A stretch of DNA of 64,000 nt from an uncultured Verrucomicrobiae bacterium (GTDB lineage: Bacteria > Verrucomicrobiota > Verrucomicrobiia > Chthoniobacterales > UBA10450). Where the stretch lies: contig CAVYXA010000001.1 in NCBI GenBank assembly GCA_963772365.1, positions 1,120,001 to 1,184,000 of the forward strand, in the 5' to 3' direction. Numbering within the stretch: position 1 is the stretch's first letter; each line of letters opens with the position of its first letter. The notes under the pieces are model-generated. The model made no database searches. It had not been told where the DNA came from and saw nothing but the letters and a program-made list of their open reading frames with translations. The position numbers and the translations under genes are program-made. Of this stretch, positions 6,328-24,092 are shown one piece after another.

Positions 6328-6837
6328 ATGCGCCTTCCTCGATTCGTGACCTATTGGATTCCTGTCGTCGGCTGGATCGTTCTGATGTACGTCGGGTCGA
6401 CCGAGATCTTATCTTCGTCACATACGTCAAGGTTTCTCTTTCCCTTTTTGCGCTGGCTCAATCCCAATTTTTCCATCATGACCTTGATAGAGATCCAGTT
6501 GGTCTTGCGAAAGATTGCGCATCTGACCGAGTACGCGATTCTGGCGAGTTTACTCTGGCGCGCCGTCCTGAGAGGAATGGACATGCCTATTCGAAAGTCG
6601 ATTTTGATACTCGCGATTCTGTTGCCGGCGGCAATTTTCGCCGTAAGCGACGAATTTCATCAATCGTTCATGCTGTCACGAACAGGATCACCGCGCGACG
6701 TCATGATCGACATCGTCGGGGCATGCATCGGCATTGCGATTTGTTGGGCTGTGAGTAAACGAAGGTCAACCGCTGCGTTTGCGAAAGGTGCAAATCCGAG
6801 CGAAGATCGACATCCCAAAATGGAGTCGGGGGCATAG
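6328..6837 (+). CDS. VanZ family membrane protein
   Basis: RKIAHLTEYAIL, DEFHQSF..RTGSPRDVMID; the stop codon lies in the first bases of tRNA-Ala. Confidence 0.88.
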   Translation: MRLPRFVTYWIPVVGWIVLMYVGSTEILSSSHTSRFLFPFLRWLNPNFSIMTLIEIQLVLRKIAHLTEYAILASLLWRAVLRGMDMPIRKSILILAILLPAAIFAVSDEFHQSFMLSRTGSPRDVMIDIVGACIGIAICWAVSKRRSTAAFAKGANPSEDRHPKMESGA

Positions 6838-6900
6838 CTCAGTTGGTAGAGCGCCAGCTTTGCAAGCTGGAAGTCAGGGGTTCGAATCCCCTTGCCTCCA
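6828..6900 (+). tRNA. tRNA-Ala(TGC)
   Basis: GGGGGCA/TGCCTCC acceptor stem, CCAGC-TTTGCAA-GCTGG anticodon arm, GTTCGAATC T-loop; CCA not encoded. Confidence 0.97.
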
Positions 6901-7094
6901 TTTTTCGCACGGCGAAAAATGTCCCGCCGTAGCCTTGGCGAAGGCGGACCTTCCCGCCACCAAAGCAGTCACGGCTCATTTTCGATTTGCGATTTGCGAT
7001 TTGCGATCTAAGTAATTGCGCGCTAGGCGTGCCGCGAAATAAATCGAAAATCCGCGGTCGAAATTCGAAAATTAGGTGGCGCAGCCGCCATTGC

Positions 7095-7171
7095 GGGCCT
7101 GTAGCTCAGTTGGTTAGAGCATGCGCTTGATAAGCGCAGGGTCACTGGTTCGAGCCCAGTCAGGCCCACCA
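7095..7171 (+). tRNA. tRNA-Ile(GAT)
   Basis: GGGCCTG/CAGGCCC stem, GCGC-TTGATAA-GCGC anticodon arm, ends ACCA. Confidence 0.97.
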
Positions 7172-8305: not shown

Positions 8306-9878
<1,573 letters not shown>

Positions 9879-10284
9879 AAACTTGGAGGGCGAACAGGAT
9901 CAGCATCCCGTTCGACCAAAGTTTGAAGCCAGTGCCGCTAAAGCACCGGCCGATCTGACTTTCTTACCCGCGTGCGAATCGATTCCTCGATTCGTTTTAC
10001 GCGGGGTTCGTCGATCTAAATCTCTTATTTCCAAAGAAATTAGCCCAGCCCCTCTCGGGACCGGACAACCCCGAATTGCTTCGGGGCAGACAGATAACGC
10101 ACAATTCAATTTTCGCTGACTTTCACTCCGAAACTTTCGGAGCCATCGTTATCAAAGATCGACAATTCCTTCCCGGTACAAGACAAAACCCGACCCGTTT
10201 ACTTCGACGGAATCGGCTCGACCCTGAGCCACGGAAGAACATCAGCCGCTTCGCACGCGACCGACCCGGTTTCGCGGGACCCTC

Positions 10285-10383: not shown

Positions 10384-10950
10384 CTACAGATTTTCCCAGG
10401 AAAATTGGCTGCGGAAAAAGGCCGCCTGCAGTTCTTGGAAATCTGCAGCGCGACAGGTGAGTTGAAATCGGAGCTGCTCCGTGCCGCGGTTGAGAAAGAG
10501 CACGGAACGACTGTAAGCCTGGCCAGCAAGATCGTAATTCAGAATCACGAGAAATGTTTCTTTTCCATCGATGATGATTGGATTGTTTTCCTGCGATAAA
10601 ATCTTAACATTTTGAGCGCTCTGGGGGATGAGCGCAGTTGCTTCTTCGACAAGTTTCTTGATGCTTTCTTGGTCAAAGTGACCCGGTTTTTGTAGGGGAA
10701 GGCTAATGATGGTGGCTTCGGCCTGGGGTTTTTTGGGCGGACGCAGACTTAGTTGAGCCGCGCTCCCGGAGTAACTCCAGCCTGCTGGCGCTTGATACGT
10801 GATCTTGCTATCACCATCTTTGAAGATCAGTTGCTCAATTTTTACTCCGTCGAGAGGCGACGCGACAACTGTCGGTGTCAACTGCAAATCCGCCCGCGCG
10901 GATACAGCCAACAAAGCAATGAGTAAAATCAACCCTAACGGACGGTCCAT
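10384..10950 (-). CDS. Secreted hypothetical protein, last gene of the pilin cluster
   Basis: Signal peptide MDRPLGLILLIALLAVSARA-D; overlaps the end of the PilX-like gene. Confidence 0.75.
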   Translation of the reverse strand: MDRPLGLILLIALLAVSARADLQLTPTVVASPLDGVKIEQLIFKDGDSKITYQAPAGWSYSGSAAQLSLRPPKKPQAEATIISLPLQKPGHFDQESIKKLVEEATALIPQSAQNVKILSQENNPIIIDGKETFLVILNYDLAGQAYSRSVLFLNRGTEQLRFQLTCRAADFQELQAAFFRSQFSWENL

Positions 10951-12891
10951 TGACCTTTCACATCCTTCCAAGCGTAAAGGGATCCCGGCGGCGCGTTTAG
11001 TTTGAAATCCGTATCAAAAAACCAGTTGCGCGTGGGAGGGACATAAACGTTGCCGCTGCCCCAGTTCGCGGTCGCCTGCTGGCTCTTGTAAAGCTCGATC
11101 ATCGAACCGTAGTAGCTGAATGAAACGTTCGTCCAGGTTTCGAGAAAGCGTGGGAAATTCTCCGCACCACCACTGTAATAGCCGTTGCCGCTGGAAACGA
11201 TTCCTGAAATAACCGCGGCATTGATGGTCGTGGGGGTTGCCACGCGCTCGCCCACTGATTTGCCTGAATTGGCGTCATTCCAGTTATTCGAGAGGATGTT
11301 CACGGCGTCCGCAACGATGGAGCACGGCGCGCGATCGTAGCTGGCAGCCTGCGGATCTGGCGGATTGGCTGGGTCCTTATAGGTGCCATCAGCGTTGAGG
11401 TTGGCCGGATTATTCGAGGGAACATTGTTGTAGTTAGGCCCAGTTCCGCCTGTATTGAAATCACCCTGGAGATAAACGGGATTATTGCTGGCCACCGTTA
11501 ACCCGGACGACGGAATGCTGCTGCCGCCAGCCACACGAATGGCCCGTCTTGCCGAGGAGGTCGCGCTCGGGTCGTACATGTAGACGATAGGATTATTGAA
11601 ACTCTTCGTGTAATCCTTACCATTGGACTTCACGATTTTGCTGATATCCAGCGTGGCTACTCGTACCTGTGCGCCTTCACGATTGTCCTGGATTGTTTGA
11701 TTCGTAGTAATTGCGCCAGGCTCGCTGAACATGGTGTATAGATTCTTATCAGCACCTTTGCTTGCACTGGTGATTTCGGCGGTCGCTCCGGTGTTGGAAT
11801 CAGTCACTTTGTAAAGTTTTACGATATCGTGTCCATTAACGCCATCCCACCCCGGCAGGTTGGGATTGGGATTATCGCTGACCTCAACGATGATGCCAGC
11901 GTTGTCCCAGTAACGCTGCCCCGCGAACGGATCTGACTGGCCGACCACGGAAGGTTCGATGAGCTCGTGATAACCATCGTTGTTCGGATTCCCATCGGTC
12001 GTATCAAATACGCTCTTGTCCAGGCCAAAGAGTTCCAGTGGATCATCCCGCGATGCCTGCGGCACGCCAGGGGCAAAGTTTGGAGGCTGAGGAGTTTCAC
12101 CGTTGTGCGAGTTTTCGTCGGGCATAAATCCAATAGTCCAGCCGGACCCATAAGTAACTTTATCACCAAACATGAGACTACTATGTCCAGTGTAGAGACC
12201 CGAATTTGTATGCACCTCACCCGTAACTGTAAATTTTGGACCTGGATGAATTTCAAGCGGATCTTCGTAGAAAATAGCAAATCGCCAGGGTGAAATCTGC
12301 ACTTTTTGAAAGACCTGACGGACCTTGGCCACGACGTTGCTCGCGCCAATGGCGGCCAATGTTACATCGGCTGAGGCAATGTAATTGTACCGTAGTTCCG
12401 GTTGCTGATTGTTTGCATCGCAGAGTGTCGGTTTCGGTACAGTACCGGCTGCAGCAAGCTTGCTGTGTTCAGGGCTAACGGCGACGACTTTATAGTTCGA
12501 GATCGTAAAATTAGCATTGTATTGCGAGTCGTCATCATCCGGATCGAACCAATTTGCGCCGGTTGTTCCGCGCTTTACGAACTTAGCCGGATTGATGCCA
12601 GTAAGCGTAGGAAACTGGCCAGGGCTTGGCGTCGGTATGGCGGTCTTAAAAGCGTTGCTATTTTTTATCGGTACTGCCGGGAGCGATGGATCTCCAATTT
12701 GCAAAAAGAATTTCCATGCAACTGTCCCCGACAACCCGCGCCGTCTCGTAAGTGTTTGTGCGAGAAACTTGCCGGTTTACCGTGGTTGTGTACTCGGTGG
12801 CAACTGTCACAATCGCGATCAGTACCATCAACGTAATAATTACAACTGCCAACGTGCTGCCAGCCTGCCTCTCACTCGGTTTTGTTTTCAT
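10935..12891 (-). CDS. PilX-like minor pilin with a large C-terminal domain; frameshift at the T6 run 12661-12666
   Basis: N-terminus QAG|STLAVVIITLMVLIAIV (no Glu5); deleting one A joins it to the 599-aa ORF (...STDKNSNAFK...) ending GGAENFPRFLETW..PPTRNWFFD. Confidence 0.75.
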
Positions 12892-12899
12892 CTATAGAT

Positions 12900-13715
12900 T
12901 TAATAGTTCCATTTGATCGGGACCTGCCCATTCAGAAGAATATTGCCCGATTTAAAGCCGCGATTGTTGTAGGCTTGGTCCGACGCGGATAAGGCGAATG
13001 CCGCGCCACCCTTGCATGCCGGATTTTTGAGGGTATCTGGAATGTAGAAGGGATTAGAATTTATGATCACTTTGCCATGTGCAATAGCGGCGGAGTTGCC
13101 ACGATAACTTCGAATCAGGGTCTTGTTGGACACCGCATACGAACAGCGATCTGTTATGAGGCAAGTCACGTGCGGGTCATTGGGATCACTGCTCGTGCCC
13201 GTGATTGCGGCTACGTTACTTGTGAATGTGAGCTTTACGTCGCCGGGTGCGTTACCGTTAACGGCCGCAATGTCAGCCTCGATGCCATTGGAGATAATTA
13301 CATGTTGACCAACCGTCGGCCCCACGACTCCGTTCACCTCGATAACGATGTGGCTGGCATCCTGAACATCTTTAATGTTGTATGGTCCGCTGACGTCATA
13401 CTCCTGACCATTTAAAACAACGCGCCCCAATTTTTGAAACGATATCCCGGGCGCAGGCGTTGGTGAGGTCCAGGGCGTCACCCCATCGGAGTTCACCAAC
13501 TGCGGAACCGAGACTGCAGAGTGAATATCCTCAAGCATGTCGAGCACTTCGGTCCGCGCTTGTTGATGCGTTGCGTTAATCACGCTGTTCTTCGCCCCGA
13601 GAGTCGTGCTAGCATTGAGAAGCGAAAAAAGAATTAGCCCAACCACGCCGATCATTGACGCGGCCACCAGCAACTCGATCAGCGTAAAACCGCGATTGCT
13701 TTGAGTTGGCTTCAT
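12900..13715 (-). CDS. Prepilin-type N-terminal cleavage/methylation protein (PilW-like)
   Basis: RG|FTLIELLVAASMIGVVGLIL. Confidence 0.88.
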   Translation of the reverse strand: MKPTQSNRGFTLIELLVAASMIGVVGLILFSLLNASTTLGAKNSVINATHQQARTEVLDMLEDIHSAVSVPQLVNSDGVTPWTSPTPAPGISFQKLGRVVLNGQEYDVSGPYNIKDVQDASHIVIEVNGVVGPTVGQHVIISNGIEADIAAVNGNAPGDVKLTFTSNVAAITGTSSDPNDPHVTCLITDRCSYAVSNKTLIRSYRGNSAAIAHGKVIINSNPFYIPDTLKNPACKGGAAFALSASDQAYNNRGFKSGNILLNGQVPIKWNY

Positions 13716-14248
13716 GGGTCGAAAGTGCGAAGCGCGCTCATCGAAAATGTGTAGGGATTTCCTGTTGCCTGTTTACGACTGTGGTAGTCGTAAGTGAGCG
13801 TGACGACGGCTTGATACGTATTTGGCGCGTAAGTGGCGTCAGATATGTCCGAAACCTGAACCGTGAGCGTGCCCAGGATTGTCATGCCATTTGGATCCTT
13901 GTAGATCGGCCACTTGTCCGAAACGGTGTTCGTAGCAGGATCCAGATAACCGATCGTGTGCGTCCCCACGGTCATGTCATATAGCGGAGGATTATGGGTC
14001 GTATCCTGTGGGATCTCGCCCCTCGATGGGTTGAACGGCCCGATGGATTGGAACAAATCGATTTGATTCATCACAGCGGTGTAGGCACCGGTCATGTTTC
14101 GGCTTGTCGCCGCGATTGAGTTCATCTTGGTCAATGTCCCAATTGCACAGGCCACACCGATACCGAGGACGCCGAGGGCCACGGTAGTTTCGACCATCGT
14201 GAACCCTGCGTTTTGGAGTATGGATTTGCAGCGTAATCGGACGTTCAC
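13712..14248 (-). CDS. Prepilin-type protein (PilV-like)
   Basis: AG|FTMVETTVALGVLGIGV; 4-bp overlap with the next gene. Confidence 0.85.
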   Translation of the reverse strand: MNVRLRCKSILQNAGFTMVETTVALGVLGIGVACAIGTLTKMNSIAATSRNMTGAYTAVMNQIDLFQSIGPFNPSRGEIPQDTTHNPPLYDMTVGTHTIGYLDPATNTVSDKWPIYKDPNGMTILGTLTVQVSDISDATYAPNTYQAVVTLTYDYHSRKQATGNPYTFSMSALRTFDP

Positions 14249-16886: not shown

Positions 16887-17735
16887 ATGTCGACGATCGC
16901 TGAACGCCGCGAACGTTTTAGAGGACTGCATCAGTCCGGTTGTTTCGCGATTCCGAACCCGTGGGATATAGGGACCGCAAAGTATCTGCAACATCTCGGG
17001 TTCAAAGCGATCGCTACCACGTCTGCGGGGTTCGCGTTCTCTCGCGGCAAATCGGACGGCGCAGTGAGCCGCGACGAGATGATCGCGCACATCCGAGAGC
17101 TGGTCGAAGCGACGGATCTTCCCGTCAACGCCGATTTCGAAAATGGTTATGCCGACGATCCGAACCGATGCGCGGAAAACGCGCGGCTTTGCGCCGAAAC
17201 GGGTGTCGGCGGTTTATCGATCGAAGATAACAGCCGCCGGAAAGATAATCCGATCTACGATGTCGATCTTGCGGTGGAACGAATCCATGCCGCCCGCGAA
17301 GCGCTTCATGGGACTGGCGTGTTGCTCGTTGGACGCGCCGAAGGATTTCTGGTCGACACCGAAACGATCGATCAAGTGATCAAACGTCTCGTGGCCTACT
17401 CGGCGGCCGGCGCCGATTGTCTGTATGCTCCCGGTCCGACAGAGCGCGATCACATCAAAGCGATTGTCGAAGCAGTGGCGCCGAAACCGGTCAACCTCCT
17501 CATCGGCGGACCTGGCAGCCTGACGATGCACGACGCGGCCGAGCTGGGCGCGCGACGCGTCAGTGTCGGCGGCGCATTTGCCCGGGCAGCCTGGGGCGGC
17601 TTTATTCGTTCGGCCAAAGAATTAATGGACAAAGGAACACTTTTCTTAGAACTTTGTCTCCGCAAACCCGTAGTAGCTAGTGGACGGGACCTTTTTCCCT
17701 TAACGCAAGCCGAACAGGAGACACAATGCCGATAG
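16887..17735 (+). CDS. Isocitrate lyase/PEP mutase family protein; C-terminus apparently replaced after ~17640
   Basis: PNPWD.GTA, ATTSAG, LPVNADFENGY, GLSIED, AGADCLYAPG, GARRVSVGG. Confidence 0.9.
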   Translation: MSTIAERRERFRGLHQSGCFAIPNPWDIGTAKYLQHLGFKAIATTSAGFAFSRGKSDGAVSRDEMIAHIRELVEATDLPVNADFENGYADDPNRCAENARLCAETGVGGLSIEDNSRRKDNPIYDVDLAVERIHAAREALHGTGVLLVGRAEGFLVDTETIDQVIKRLVAYSAAGADCLYAPGPTERDHIKAIVEAVAPKPVNLLIGGPGSLTMHDAAELGARRVSVGGAFARAAWGGFIRSAKELMDKGTLFLELCLRKPVVASGRDLFPLTQAEQETQCR

Positions 17736-19024
17736 TAGATTTAATCAAAGGAATGGATCTCGGAGCAGGCGTCGACTTGGGTGGACAACTCTTCGGAGAC
17801 GCCGTCGTCCGCACACCCGGAGACGAGATAGATCATACTGGTGGGCAAACTGAGGACGTCTTCCTTACCCTAGTGGAAACGCAGGACGACCAAAACACGG
17901 CTCTCCATCTATCTACCTCTGTCAGCGCATCCTACGGATTGTTCGGCGGTTCGGGCAAGTTCGACCTCTCAGAGGAAATGCACGTCCATAACTTCTCGAT
18001 CTCGCTCGTCATCCGCGCAACTGTTCTCAATGCCTTCAGACAAATGCGAGACGTACAATTCAAGCCGTCGGCCAGGACTCTGCTCGAAAACGGGCAGGAC
18101 ATCCGCTTCCGCGAGCAGTTCGGCGACATGTTCGTGCGTGGCATTCAAACTGGTGGTGAGCTTTGTGCCATCCTGCAGATCGTCGGCCACGACGAAAGCG
18201 ATCAAACGTCAATCAAAGCTGAGCTGGAGGCGGCAGGCATTATCGGCGGGGTTGCAATTGCCACGAAGGACACCTTTTCTTCCGCCGTGAGCAAAGCAAC
18301 GTCGCATCGCGAAGTCAAGTTGCGTCACTTCCAAGTCGGTGGCAACCCCAAAGCCTCAATCGATCCCGACACCATGATTCAGCACGCGCTCAACTTCGCC
18401 GCCGAAGTCAAGACTCCCGGCCAGGCCGAGGCTTTCCAGGCGCTATTAGTGTCCTATAAGACGCTTGACTTGCCGTTCGCGCCCAACTTCGTGGACCTCG
18501 AGAACGCCAAAGAGACCTTAGCCCTTCTGATGCAAAAACGGCAGGATGCGCTGACGCGTCTGACATCTTTCAATTTCGTAATCGGCCATCCCGATCAGTT
18601 CATCATCCCGCCGGGTATGAGTGTCAACGCCATCGCCGGGCGCTTGGGAACTGCCGTCGCAACGCTGACCTCCGCCGCATCACGTTGCGTCAACAGGCCC
18701 AAGGAAGCCCCGGAAGCTTTGACTAGCATAGGCGCACTAGACATCCCTTTGGACGACCTGCCCCAGCGGCGCGCGGGTAAGCCCCCTACGCCAGACGTGC
18801 CACTTATGCCTGATTGGGTTGGGAAACAATTCGATGACGTGAAAATTCTAACGCAGGCCAAATCGCTGCAACTTGTGATTTCACTTCACCCGTTTGATGT
18901 GACGCCTGGGAAAACTTCCTTTGTTCCCCCAGGGGGGATCACACAAACAAACCCTGCGTCGGGTGTGCAGATTCAACCTGGCACTGCGGTAACTGTCACA
19001 TTCCGCCGGGGGCACACACTGTGA
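17726..19024 (+). CDS. Putative MACPF/CDC-fold pore-forming protein with a C-terminal PASTA-like domain
   Basis: FREQ-FGDMF-VRGIQT-GG fits the spacing of the MACPF signature (Y/W)G(T/S)H(F/Y)-x6-GG; C-terminal MPDWVG...TQTNPASGVQIQPGTAVTVTF is PASTA-like; AGGAG RBS. Confidence 0.65.
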   Translation: MPIVDLIKGMDLGAGVDLGGQLFGDAVVRTPGDEIDHTGGQTEDVFLTLVETQDDQNTALHLSTSVSASYGLFGGSGKFDLSEEMHVHNFSISLVIRATVLNAFRQMRDVQFKPSARTLLENGQDIRFREQFGDMFVRGIQTGGELCAILQIVGHDESDQTSIKAELEAAGIIGGVAIATKDTFSSAVSKATSHREVKLRHFQVGGNPKASIDPDTMIQHALNFAAEVKTPGQAEAFQALLVSYKTLDLPFAPNFVDLENAKETLALLMQKRQDALTRLTSFNFVIGHPDQFIIPPGMSVNAIAGRLGTAVATLTSAASRCVNRPKEAPEALTSIGALDIPLDDLPQRRAGKPPTPDVPLMPDWVGKQFDDVKILTQAKSLQLVISLHPFDVTPGKTSFVPPGGITQTNPASGVQIQPGTAVTVTFRRGHTL

Positions 19025-19209
19025 GTACGTCCTGACTACAAATGATTGTTTTAAAATGAATAAAGGATGCTCGTTAATCCATTGGTGTGCCTCAGTGAGC
19101 AAGCAAAAGTCCCAAGCTCTAAGAAAGATGCGATCGGGAGAAACTATTATCGACAAGGCATTGAAAATTTCGCTAAATCCAGAATTGATTTTCTGAAAAG
19201 AATACTCTG

Positions 19210-19539
19210 ATGCCCTTCCAGGAAGACTTTGCAAACGCACTTAACGATTTCGGTATCACTGTCGATTCATCTGTGATTCCTTCGCAAGATGTGCTGCAAA
19301 ATGGACTCGACAGCCTATCTGAGTGGCTAAGCTCGCTTGAGGACGAAACCCGAGCCGCCGCGGACGAAGTGACCGCGGATTTTCCGGTCAAATTCGGCTT
19401 GGCAGATGCAGAGGTGAATATAGCTCCGGGCCTTTCTGATTTGCTAAAGGCTTTCGATGATCTGCCAGCGAGCCTCTCGATTTCCACCATATTGGACAAC
19501 TGCAAGACGGCTTTCGCAAACATAGATGGAGGTAACTGA
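19210..19539 (+). CDS. Small acidic helical hypothetical protein
   Basis: 109-aa ORF; TGATG coupling to the next gene. Confidence 0.7.
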   Translation: MPFQEDFANALNDFGITVDSSVIPSQDVLQNGLDSLSEWLSSLEDETRAAADEVTADFPVKFGLADAEVNIAPGLSDLLKAFDDLPASLSISTILDNCKTAFANIDGGN

Positions 19540-19874
19540 TGCCAGGCGTAGAGGATTTTGATTCGTTCAAGGAATGTATAAAGACGCAGACTAACCTGGA
19601 CCTTGAAGCGTGGGATGTAATGTTCTTTGAACCGTTGAAGGATTTGGTCGCTTGGTGGAATCGACAGTCCGACGCGACGAAAGCATGGACGGGTTTCCTT
19701 TCTGGCGTCGCAGGCACCGCATTCACGCGTTGGATTGCGCGAGTCGCACAGATAGCGTCCACGGAAGTCGCCGGTCTTTTCGCCGAGGCTCTAGTAGCCG
19801 TGGCCGCAGGCATTGCACTCGGAACGTTCTTTGATGCTGCCGGACGCTGTCTGGCCCAGATTCAGAACGTATAG
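19539..19874 (+). CDS. Small hypothetical protein with Ala/Gly-rich hydrophobic C-terminal helices
   Basis: GGAGG RBS, coupled start, LFAEALVAVAAGIALGTFF hydrophobic stretch. Confidence 0.72.
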   Translation: MPGVEDFDSFKECIKTQTNLDLEAWDVMFFEPLKDLVAWWNRQSDATKAWTGFLSGVAGTAFTRWIARVAQIASTEVAGLFAEALVAVAAGIALGTFFDAAGRCLAQIQNV

Positions 19875-20369
19875 ACAAAACCGAGACCGGCGGCCGTTTC
19901 TGATACATCTGACCCGGCGTTGCGACGAGGCAAGTTGCAACCTCCGCGACGCGGGCATGCAAAGCGAGCCATCACCGTAACTCTGACCGGCGTGGGCAAC
20001 CGAAGTGAGCACGACAGGCCCGAACCCAGTGGCTTGTGGCATCGTGGCGAACAGATCAATCCGGAGAAGTTAAGGTCGTGGACTTCATTAGTTAGAAAGT
20101 CTATGAACCACCGAACCACCAAGCTCACGCTTTTCACTTGGAAGGGCGACTCTTCATGGATGGCTGACGCCCAAATCGGTTACGGAGCGAACAAAGGCCA
20201 TACTGAAGGAACCGCATGCAACTCGAATCTATCAACTTCCGGCTCAATGCTTTTATTCCGAATTCTGCCTGTATAACAGGCCCGCGCTTCAAAGAATCAT
20301 AGGGCGCTTGGAACGTCCGACGGGCATTTTTAAACCAGGAGGCCGAAAGGAAGCCACGAAGAAATTACG

Positions 20370-20432
20370 GATAGGGAAGATAGGGGTCAGGATAGGAAGA
20401 TAGGGGTCATAGGAAGATAGGGGTCAGGCATC
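20370..20432. repeat. Three tandem copies of ATAGGAAGATAGGGGTCA ending in GGGGTCAGGCATCAAATCTTGAC
   Basis: Read directly; related motif GGGGCTCGCATCTATACTTTGAC at ~20482-20504. Confidence 0.75.
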
Positions 20433-20557
20433 AAATCTTGACCGGCGTAAAGCTGCGCCAGCGGTTTGACGGAAAGAATCAGGGGCTCGCATCTATACTT
20501 TGACATTTGATCGATCGGGATCAGCACGGTTACCGAACGCTCCCACGCGATCTAAAT

Positions 20558-22301: not shown

Positions 22302-24092
22302 ATGAATCAGAAGTTCTCTGCGATTGTAGCATTTTGGGGCTTGTTCTGCCTTAGCGCTGTGCCCTTGTTCGCAAATGGAAGATCGAGCGCGGGTGATCTC
22401 GTTTCTGGCCCGGACATAATCGTGGGAGAGGTCACAGCCGTGAGCCAACGGGGAAGCAGCGGGACCCAGGTCGGTCTGGCGATCGGCATCGCGGCGTGCA
22501 ACAACGGAACCGCAGACTTGGATTTCTTTCACTTGCCGAATCCGGATCACCCCGTGTTGGCGCAGAATCTTTATCGAATGAGCGGAGGCGGGACTAACGA
22601 CGAGCGGTTCGAGCAAGTGGGCCAGTCCTGGCTGAAGCACATGTATTTTGCGCTCGAGCAAAACGGGTGCGGCTTTGGTTGTTCGCCATACGGCGACGGG
22701 ACCCGCTTGGGACCAGGCTGCTCCGATCCCGAAAGTGCGGCTTCGAATGGTGATCAAAACAATCTGGGATCGCGGGCTTGGGTGAATCCGTTTACCGGAG
22801 TTTTTCCCGCAAATCCGAATCCGGACAATCACGCAGGCCATACCCACACCGGCGTTACCCACCGCGTGTTAGTGGAAGACAACGATCTCGAGCCGGCGCT
22901 TAACGAGGGCGCGACTTATTATGCCGAGGCTCAATGCATCACTCCGCACGAGTATGCCTGGTGTCAGACGCATCCCGGGCAGTGCAATATGTTTAATAAT
23001 GTGTCCTATCGCCAGTTCAACGTGACCGGGACAACGAACTACGTTTTCGCGGCGATTGGATCGACGGTGCGGAGCACGGCGGCGATCACGGCCTGGACCG
23101 GCGCGACGATCAACGCGATCGAACCGGCGCCTGGAATCGATGGCCGGACGTTGATTGGCTACAAGGTGACGAACCCATCTGCCGGCGTTTGGCATTATGA
23201 GTACGCGATTTATAACGAGAATCTCGATCGCGCGATTCAATCGTTCCGTGTGCCCATGGGATGCGGCATCACGATCAGCAACATTGTTTTTCACGCGCCC
23301 TTGAATCATCCCGGGATTGCCAACGACGGAACCGTGGGTGACGCAGGATTCAGCAACGTGCCATGGACCTCGAATCAGACCGCGGATGCGCTGACTTGGA
23401 ACACGGAGACGTTTGCCCAAAATCAGAACGCGAACGCGATCCGGTTTGGCACCCTGTATAATTTCCGATTCGACGCCGATCGCCCGCCGCACGCGGCCAA
23501 TGCGACGATCGGCTTCTTCAAAACGGGCAGCCCGATCACCGTCGCAATTGCCGCGCCTACGCCGGATACATGCGTGCCATTGCAGTTGCTGTCGGCGGTT
23601 TCGCGCAAGACGCACGGAGCCGCGGGCGATTTCGATGTCGATCTACCGCTCACCGGTGAACCCGGCGTGGAATGCCGGAACGGCGGCGGCGATTACACCA
23701 TGGTGGTCATGTTCAATAACATGGTGGTCAGCGGGAACGCGACCGTGACCAGCGGCACGGGCAACGTGGCGGGTAGTCCCGGCTTCAGTGGCAACACAAT
23801 GACAGTGGAGTTAACCGGAGTCACCGACGAGCAGAGAATCGCGGTCACTTTGACTGGAGTGACGGACAATTCCGCGCAGGTCCTGCCCGATACGCCGATC
23901 AGCATGAATATGCTTATCGGCGATACTAATGGGAACAAAGCCGTAAACGCCTCCGATGTTGCTCAAACCAAGGCACGATTAGGATCGGTGGCCAGCGCCG
24001 TCACCTTCCGCGCGGACGTTAATGTTAGTGGCACGATCACCGCGTCGGATCTTGCCCAGGTAAAGGCGAGCTTGGGACATGCGGTTCCATGA
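22302..24092 (+). CDS. Secreted Cys/His-containing protein with C-terminal VSRKTHG domain and dockerin-like repeats
   Basis: Signal peptide; C-terminal GDTNGNKAVNASD...FRADVNVSGTITASD duplicated Ca-binding-like motif. Confidence 0.8.
   Translation: MNQKFSAIVAFWGLFCLSAVPLFANGRSSAGDLVSGPDIIVGEVTAVSQRGSSGTQVGLAIGIAACNNGTADLDFFHLPNPDHPVLAQNLYRMSGGGTNDERFEQVGQSWLKHMYFALEQNGCGFGCSPYGDGTRLGPGCSDPESAASNGDQNNLGSRAWVNPFTGVFPANPNPDNHAGHTHTGVTHRVLVEDNDLEPALNEGATYYAEAQCITPHEYAWCQTHPGQCNMFNNVSYRQFNVTGTTNYVFAAIGSTVRSTAAITAWTGATINAIEPAPGIDGRTLIGYKVTNPSAGVWHYEYAIYNENLDRAIQSFRVPMGCGITISNIVFHAPLNHPGIANDGTVGDAGFSNVPWTSNQTADALTWNTETFAQNQNANAIRFGTLYNFRFDADRPPHAANATIGFFKTGSPITVAIAAPTPDTCVPLQLLSAVSRKTHGAAGDFDVDLPLTGEPGVECRNGGGDYTMVVMFNNMVVSGNATVTSGTGNVAGSPGFSGNTMTVELTGVTDEQRIAVTLTGVTDNSAQVLPDTPISMNMLIGDTNGNKAVNASDVAQTKARLGSVASAVTFRADVNVSGTITASDLAQVKASLGHAVP

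Follow-up and report, generated by a model that had tools for sequence, protein, structure and literature searches.

The locus described here raises the question of what a bacterium might do with a perforin-like protein that has no signal peptide and ends in a PASTA domain, and whether the two small genes that follow it belong to the same system. It lies in a stretch of 64,000 nt from an uncultured Verrucomicrobiae bacterium (contig CAVYXA010000001.1, positions 1,120,001 to 1,184,000), hereafter the window, to which all coordinates refer. Pore formers of the perforin type have a central place in animal immunity and in many toxins; to our knowledge, few bacterial representatives have been studied, and those are secreted proteins from gut or pathogenic bacteria. 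An initial annotation, made from the sequence of the window alone, had proposed a horizontally acquired, multi-component pore-forming system consisting of a MACPF-PASTA protein, encoded by the gene that we call A, and of two small coupled genes, B and C. The MACPF-PASTA reading was confirmed on the basis of the predicted structure and of sequence profiles: residues 1-250 of A are predicted to adopt the fold of membrane attack complex/perforin (MACPF) proteins and cholesterol-dependent cytolysins (CDC). The following features were delimited in A.

17726..19024, plus strand: gene A, 432 residues (open reading frame call, AlphaFold2 model, fold and family evidence)
17726..18475, plus strand: predicted MACPF/CDC core, residues 1-250 (predicted structure)
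17876..17989, plus strand: putative membrane-inserting hairpin region TMH1, residues ~51-88, Ser/Gly-rich with alternating residues and a GG turn (role by analogy with MACPF/CDC proteins)
18119..18157, plus strand: MACPF-signature-like motif FGDMFVRGIQTGG, residues 132-144 (motif position search)
18188..18310, plus strand: putative hairpin region TMH2, residues ~155-195 (presumed role)
18482..18766, plus strand: helical hairpin or bundle domain, residues 253-347 (model helices 255-287, 300-323 and 325-334)
18758..18802, plus strand: Pro-rich hinge, residues 345-359, with PPTPDVP at residues 353-359; the domain content of relatives diverges 3' of it
18806..19003, plus strand: PASTA domain, residues 361-426 (Pfam and structure)

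The elements listed in the initial annotation, namely an open reading frame of 432 residues with FGDMF-x6-GG, a STSVSASYGLFGGSGKF segment (residues 63-79), a helical linker, a PPTPDVP hinge, a PASTA-like C terminus and the lack of a signal peptide, were all recovered. A stretch resembling a ribosome-binding site, AGGAG, is located 8 nt 5' of the ATG. PASTA is the sole Pfam family in A: PF03793 scores 26.8 bits against a gathering cut-off of 23.2, and the PASTA fold was also recognised by structure comparison. The Pfam scan revealed neither a thioredoxin nor a SPRY domain, and scans with NCBIfam, PADLOC and PHROGs yielded no usable family. No signal peptide was detected by a hydropathy heuristic, a dedicated signal-peptide predictor not having been used; the highest 19-residue Kyte-Doolittle mean, 1.14, falls inside a strand of the core. 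The canonical MACPF signature is Y/W-G-T/S-H-F/Y-x6-G-G, whereas A reads F-G-D-M-F-x6-G-G, so that G, F and GG match and positions 1, 3 and 4 differ. The glycines of the G-x5-G-x3-GG portion (G133, G139, G143 and G144) do not vary in any of the 16 relatives compared.

The model of A, built with AlphaFold2 on 16 relatives, has a mean predicted local distance difference test score (pLDDT) of 78.4 and exhibits the bent central β-sheet with two flanking helical clusters that defines MACPF/CDC proteins, as the initial annotation had expected of a MACPF/CDC core joined to PASTA. Foldseek searches against the Protein Data Bank (PDB) returned 39 matches at E<=1e-3, and all of those listed are MACPF/CDC proteins. 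The best is the Aeg-L pore (6.2e-8), followed by stonustoxin (1.6e-7); TgPLP1, MPEG-1, Plu-MACPF, C8, C9, pleurotolysin B, perforin, perfringolysin and pneumolysin are also among the matches listed. In a separate structural comparison, stonustoxin (4wvm) ranked first, with a Z of 9.7 over 181 residues at 4.7 Å (model 1-244 against chain 5-249), ahead of PlyB (Z 8.6), Aeg-L (Z 8.4), C8-alpha (Z 8.3), Streptolysin O (Z 8.3) and EaCDCL (Z 8.1). The matched part of the model in these comparisons spans residues 1-252; the alignment with Aeg-L covers 255 residues between model 1-349 and chain 2-351, at 22 Å to a chain in the pore state. Besides Aeg-L, the structural matches of the helical domain are generic helical bundles. 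The family profile, compared with PDB sequences, also detected Aeg-L (9uj0_A, E 3.3e-7, residues 2-209 against 3-202), with FGDMFVRGIQTGG of A aligned to YGDRFIADFIKGG of Aeg-L. No other solved protein was detected by sequence, and the identity of Aeg-L to A is ~15%.

In the model, the TMH1 region comprises helices 53-59 and 72-84 around a low-confidence loop (64-72), and the TMH2 region comprises helices 157-169 and 181-192 around a second one (174-180). Both clusters are rich in Ser and Gly, with alternating residues and GG turns, which is the make-up that would be expected of MACPF/CDC membrane hairpins.

The family to which A belongs is a large, uncharacterised and mostly signal-less bacterial branch, in which a constant N-terminal domain is combined with exchangeable, surface-binding C-terminal modules. 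An exhaustive profile search gathered 4,242 clusters (50% identity) at E<=1e-3, 2,309 at 1e-10 and 761 at 1e-30; the profile holds some C-terminal positions, so the weakest matches may be PASTA-only, and the 150 matches listed all cover the N-terminal domain. A word-index search with A returned 16 clusters including its own, the other 15 at 28-82% identity. Relatives were found at 35 genome loci in Actinomycetota, Bacillota, Cyanobacteria, Chloroflexota, Bacteroidota, Planctomycetota, Acidobacteriota and Proteobacteria, and on 11 plasmid records, where they are labelled 'hypothetical', 'PASTA domain-containing' or 'MAC/perforin domain-containing'; a search of phage records gave no homologue. 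The plasmids are large ones of Clostridium sporogenes, C. botulinum, C. beijerinckii, Bacillus, Streptomyces and others, and in the two plasmid regions that were viewed, the relatives are located amid IS66, IS5 and Tn3 transposases and a recombinase.

With regard to the C-terminal modules, Pfam, applied to 105 relatives, identified PASTA in 18 (15 of them reaching the cut-off), LGFP in six, crystallin in four, Kelch in two, and TIG and DUF346 in one each, while 72 contained no Pfam family whatever. PASTA after the same N-terminal domain is thus not unique to A. The initial annotation knew of no described MACPF-PASTA system with this layout; our literature search did not retrieve any paper joining MACPF with a PASTA domain in bacteria, nor any joining stonustoxin, MACPF and prokaryotes. 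An IQ-TREE tree of the N-terminal domain was calculated on 102 rows, four of 106 proteins being left out (three truncated at the N terminus and one shorter than 330 residues) and the MACPF of locus L012, a Thermomicrobiales genome discussed below, being added. On this tree, PASTA domains at or above the cut-off require eight gains or losses, of which at least six are forced by well-supported branches, and they cluster no more tightly than shuffled labels (240 of 500 shuffles were as low). Since PASTA changes so often on the tree, and since one relative (P0002) has an N-terminal domain 82% identical to that of A and a different tail, the C-terminal module is often swapped. Such exchangeable tails are the pattern of a diversifying toxin. 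The locus exposes a very large and almost unannotated bacterial perforin branch that shuffles wall and surface modules behind a constant, presumed killing domain, and whose closest relative of known structure is an allergenic pore former from a fungus.

Two of 162 family proteins, P0085 and P0148, have a hydrophobic N-terminal leader ahead of the MACPF domain and look like exported versions of a leaderless family; P0085 combines a lipobox-like LAGC with a PASTA tail. At one locus in Neobacillus vireti (L024, 3884-5287), a second open reading frame of 468 residues with a PASTA match is located ~700 nt upstream of the family member, and the two may be a tandem pair of paralogues.

The two genes downstream of A were described initially as translationally coupled open reading frames of ~110 residues, and this description holds.

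19210..19539, plus strand: gene B, 109 residues, acidic (isoelectric point 4.05), soluble, without a hydrophobic segment, of an unnamed family
19539..19874, plus strand: gene C, 111 residues, helical, with a membrane-like segment at residues ~72-100

The stop codon of B overlaps the ATG of C by one base, and GGAGG lies 8 nt before this ATG. Both families are conserved. The eight clusters of the B family comprise that of B itself and seven at 61-76% identity, with 23 invariant columns; in the C family, which has 19 clusters, those other than its own show 35-82% identity, and C13 and C104 are invariant. B-like and C-like proteins occur on contigs of the same size (33267, 2456 and 3070), which indicates that the two genes are conserved as a pair. 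The model of C shows four helices (pLDDT 72.3), and its highest 19-residue hydropathy mean is 2.06, at residues 77-95; a fold search with this model gave no match at E<=1e-3. For B and C, Pfam produced sub-threshold chance matches only, and no NCBIfam, PADLOC or PHROGs family was found. A protein-atlas search with both gave no score >=0.9, and a circular-bacteriocin cluster at 0.81 for C is regarded as a lead only. No relatives of C were found in plasmids or viral contigs. The 683-nt gap 3' of C contains a TTG-start open reading frame of 118 residues (19920-20276), which matches no Pfam or PHROGs family significantly and is unlikely to be a gene.

Whether B and C belong with A was examined at 70 other family loci, 35 genomic and 35 metagenomic; in 36 of these the sequence extends 1 kb or more upstream and 1.5 kb or more downstream, and in 60 it does so on one side or both. 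Searches with phmmer and profile hidden Markov models placed B and C beside a family member in a single one of them, L012. The MACPF encoded there is 28% identical to A and ranks 65th of 162 by family score; a branch supported at 96% divides the two in the tree, and a Pfam scan of the L012 protein at E<=0.1 recognised no PASTA domain. Gene C was not found in any of the 390 other genomes sampled from the class of L012 (391 in all) and, among samples of 401, 401 and 391 genomes, was found only in the genome of the window and in that of L012. As this rare pair touches so distant a family member, its link to the A family is unlikely to be due to chance; by a rough estimate rather than a formal test, chance adjacency among 70 loci would have a probability of about 1e-4. 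The link is nonetheless one observation, ascertained via A. B and C are not general partners of the A family. Clustering of the flanks with blastp found no other gene family that recurs beside family members, and neither an activating protease nor an NTPase sensor recurs there. The flanking open reading frames of relatives (150 of 162 scanned with Pfam, five near-duplicate loci having been dropped beforehand) comprise housekeeping genes, regulators, IS66 elements, a resolvase and one MmeI-type enzyme. The family is single-copy in the window genome, and no aegerolysin or second MACPF/CDC gene accompanies A as a partner. The multi-component system of the initial annotation is thus supported in that B and C are real genes and stand beside the family again in L012, and is not supported in that this occurs at one of 70 loci and that neither gene is related to known MACPF partners; a three-gene reading is weakly suggested by this one independent co-occurrence.

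The distribution of A is that of an accessory gene. It is single-copy, and among 401 genomes sampled from the phylum it was found only in that of the window. The same is true for C in 401 genomes of the phylum and in 401 of the order, 71 of which belong to the same family, and the single genome of the same genus (95% complete) yielded no match to A or C. Because both are confined to the window genome among the sampled relatives, horizontal acquisition, as proposed initially, is plausible. The block is delimited, and followed, by these features.

17630..17735, plus strand: left synteny break, from the non-orthologous tail of the phosphoenolpyruvate (PEP)-mutase gene into the start of A (orthologue and DNA comparisons)
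20375..20428, plus strand: three tandem copies of GGAAGATAGGGGTCAGG, 17 nt each, with 0.02 expected by chance; not part of the system

The PEP-mutase has a complete Pfam domain (residues 11-246) and orthologues in 63 of 81 genomes of the family, or in 61 of 79 without the two unpublished ones (G1183 and G1188). As noted initially, it loses its family-like end where the block starts: its last ~30 residues have no orthologue, and every match listed ends near residue 250-270 of 282. At the DNA level, the similarity to the same-genus genome extends as far as 17638 and that to a same-family genome as far as 17629, so that both end 90-100 nt before A, whose start is overlapped by the PEP-mutase stop by 10 nt. 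Since the similarity ends just before A and the tail of the PEP-mutase is not orthologous, the left junction is sharp. A was probably acquired horizontally at the 3' end of this gene. To the right of 17638, nothing is shared with the same-family and same-genus genomes within 9.6 kb, so the block has no defined right-hand end. Rfam detected nothing between 15000 and 23000, and there is no tRNA near the block. The repeat cluster at which the block was initially thought to end does exist, but it does not mark a boundary: five contigs of the same genome carry 20 further matches to its unit, which lie on either strand and concentrate in a few regions, so that the repeat is not specific to this block. 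An exact 15-mer of the repeat occurs seven times, against none for a reversed control. The dispersed repeat, whose core is GGAAGATAGGGGTCA, lies at 20375-20449 in the window and is also present at C1:1726-1729 kb, at C3:399-404 kb and 670-672 kb, and on C2, C5 and C6.

Taken as a whole, we favour, with a confidence that is no better than even, a reading in which A is a leaderless MACPF pore former whose PASTA domain is aimed at the envelope of walled bacteria, while B and C form a separate module with a role in protection, control or release. According to this proposal, A would be made as a soluble protein without a signal peptide. By analogy with other members of the superfamily, the helical clusters at residues ~51-88 and ~155-195 would refold into β-hairpins and give rise to an oligomeric β-barrel pore. 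The helical domain and the Pro hinge would join this killing module to the single PASTA domain, the putative targeting part, which would bind peptidoglycan-type ligands, such as muropeptides or lipid II, on walled bacteria. The acidic, soluble B and the small, membrane-like C would constitute a rare, separate two-gene module, tied to the A family in two distant genomes, and would most likely protect the membrane of the producer, or control or release A, rather than contribute a pore subunit. PASTA and LGFP are extracytoplasmic, wall-associated modules; PASTA, LGFP, TIG and crystallin domains are of surface-binding types, and in the MACPF/CDC proteins that have been studied, the C-terminal domain does the targeting. 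Given these surface-binding tails, the targeting role of C-terminal domains in MACPF/CDC proteins and the two exported family members, a toxin acting on envelopes from the outside is favoured. If the pores are indeed directed against peptidoglycan-bearing cells, these proteins would represent a new class of antibacterial proteins in which the targeting part is built in and can be exchanged.

Several observations weigh against this proposal. As for the fold, the Pfam MACPF family (PF01823, gathering cut-off 21.5 bits) did not match A at E<=1. It reaches the cut-off in two of the 105 relatives (P0014 at 23.2 and P0051 at 23.1; P0046 is just under it at 20.0), and A is therefore a divergent superfamily member, outside the Pfam family as modelled. 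The Foldseek TM-scores are low (0.2-0.3), the loops of the putative hairpins are of low confidence, the steps of pore formation and targeting rest on prediction and analogy rather than on experiment, and ligand binding by the PASTA domain is assumed. As for export, an N-terminal leader is absent from 160 of 162 family proteins according to the hydropathy heuristic, which was used in place of a dedicated predictor, and no recurrent secretion system was seen beside family members, so that the exit of A from the cell is unexplained. The producer also appears to be of the Gram-negative type, with peptidoglycan that is not exposed. As for B and C, 69 of the 70 other family loci lack them, although only 36 of these loci have both flanks. 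A gap of 185 nt, the most AT-rich stretch nearby (GC 46.8% in 19000-19499), separates A from B, and in L012 the pair is on the opposite strand, divergent from the MACPF gene.

These last points are equally what would be expected if A were a stand-alone toxin and B and C an unrelated neighbouring module, co-resident with it in variable genome regions both here and in L012. The absence of any gene family recurring beside family members fits this explanation, as does the fact that no size is shared between the longest contigs listed for the B-like and C-like clusters and those listed for close relatives of A. The spacer and the reversed orientation in L012 point the same way. The rarity of the pair, with C in just two of the genomes sampled, is harder to accommodate: in both genomes it touches this one family, although the two MACPFs are far apart in the tree, and the rough estimate for chance adjacency given above is small. 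We regard this explanation as unlikely on balance, though it is the one to be taken most seriously after the reading that we favour.

The leaderless state of the family bears on a further possibility, in which a cytoplasmic A perforates the inner membrane of its own producer when the C-terminal module senses a signal, with B and C as regulators, that is, a gasdermin logic on a perforin fold. The trigger could be cell-wall precursors or fragments freed during phage lysis. In accordance with such a suicide pore, 160 of 162 proteins are leaderless with a pore domain starting at residue 1, the distribution of A is sporadic and accessory, some relatives occur amid insertion sequence (IS) elements and resolvases or on plasmids, and one adjoins a type IIG restriction enzyme. 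The initial annotation had also considered an abortive-defence pore, an idea that drew no support from PADLOC (PADLOC-DB 2.0.0), which contains no model matching A, B or C; among 150 flanking open reading frames, one is a credible defence gene, the other five PADLOC matches being an Era GTPase, UvrA, a kinase, a LuxR protein and an oxidase. In the literature on anti-phage or conflict systems that our search covered, MACPF is mentioned only as an analogy. Furthermore, no activating protease or NTPase sensor recurs at family loci, phage records contain no homologue, the PASTA, LGFP, TIG and crystallin tails are extracytoplasmic and surface-binding, and two family members have export signals. Taking both sides into account, this possibility appears improbable, somewhat more so than that of an unrelated B and C.

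A bolder version of the proposal would see here a new kind of perforin system: a leaderless MACPF whose swappable tail reads envelope molecules, PASTA reading peptidoglycan precursors or fragments, and which in a rare three-gene form uses C and B to gate, export or neutralise the pore, as a holin-like release pair or as an inner-membrane immunity pair. It would also provide a prokaryotic origin link for fungal Aeg-L and stonustoxin-type perforins. We consider this version doubtful, and less probable than the suicide pore. Finally, a non-lytic use of the fold, of the kind suggested for certain MACPF proteins that do not lyse cells, for example in adhesion, envelope remodelling or development, is very improbable: a shared fold alone does not establish function, the signature is only partly kept (F-G-D-M-F against Y/W-G-T/S-H-F/Y) and many relatives occur in filamentous or sporulating bacteria, but the helical clusters have the alternating, Ser/Gly-rich make-up and GG turns expected of membrane hairpins, and the nearest solved relative, Aeg-L, was deposited as a pore.

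Elsewhere in the window, a complete 16S rRNA gene (Rfam) occupies 8315-9879 on the minus strand, and the usual spacer tRNAs, tRNA-Ala(TGC) and tRNA-Ile(GAT), are located just past its 3' end on the plus strand (6828-7171). As they are on opposite strands, they are not co-transcribed, which suggests an unusual or unlinked rRNA arrangement. A cluster of minus-strand genes with pilin-like N termini (such as FTLIELLVA) and a dockerin protein of 596 residues (Pfam 4.9e-9) are present at 10935-14248 and 22302-24092, respectively; they are unrelated to A.

Among known systems, stonustoxin has a signal-less N-terminal MACPF domain followed by a helical FAT-like domain, a thioredoxin domain and a PRYSPRY domain. 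A shares the signal-less N-terminal MACPF followed by other domains, whereas the thioredoxin and PRYSPRY domains were not found in it, and of the downstream domains the helical segment alone has a counterpart. Stonustoxin is, moreover, a heterodimer from an animal venom. The BSAP-type MACPF toxins of Bacteroides, in which a bacterial MACPF acts on other bacteria with strain-variable targeting, resemble A by description only; they are secreted and come from gut Bacteroidales. In the binary aegerolysin-MACPF pore of pleurotolysin B with OlyA or PlyA (9do6, 4oej), the partner is a β-sandwich, whereas gene C is predicted to be all-helical, and the B and C pair accompanies the A family at just one of 70 other loci.

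Aeg-L of Alternaria alternata (PDB 9uj0) is similar to A in that its MACPF domain starts at residue 1, without a leader, and is followed by a helical region, and in that the motifs align. As far as the published account describes it, Aeg-L is the large MACPF component of a fungal system that perforates epithelia together with a small partner, Aeg-S (PMC13341504). It differs from A in working with Aeg-S and in lacking PASTA; the locus of A encodes no aegerolysin, and B and C have no Pfam family. The CDC-like (CDCL) toxins of Bacteroidota are described by Abrahamsen et al. (2024, PMC11169675) as two CDC-like components activated by proteolysis on the target surface, with an immunity lipoprotein. 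Compared with that description, the locus of A encodes one leaderless MACPF with a PASTA tail and no second CDC-like gene.

Pyroptolysins, which according to their description carry a CDC-type sterol-binding domain (10.64898/2026.10.05.756811), and bacterial gasdermins have the gasdermin fold rather than that of MACPF, and there is no gasdermin among the listed fold matches of A. Gasdermin systems also have an adjacent protease, of which none is recurrent at loci of the A family. The likeness to both lies in the layout, in which a pore fold starts from the first residues and is followed by an exchangeable C-terminal domain that targets membranes or inhibits. If A and its relatives acted from inside the cell, they would be a perforin-based counterpart of bacterial gasdermins.

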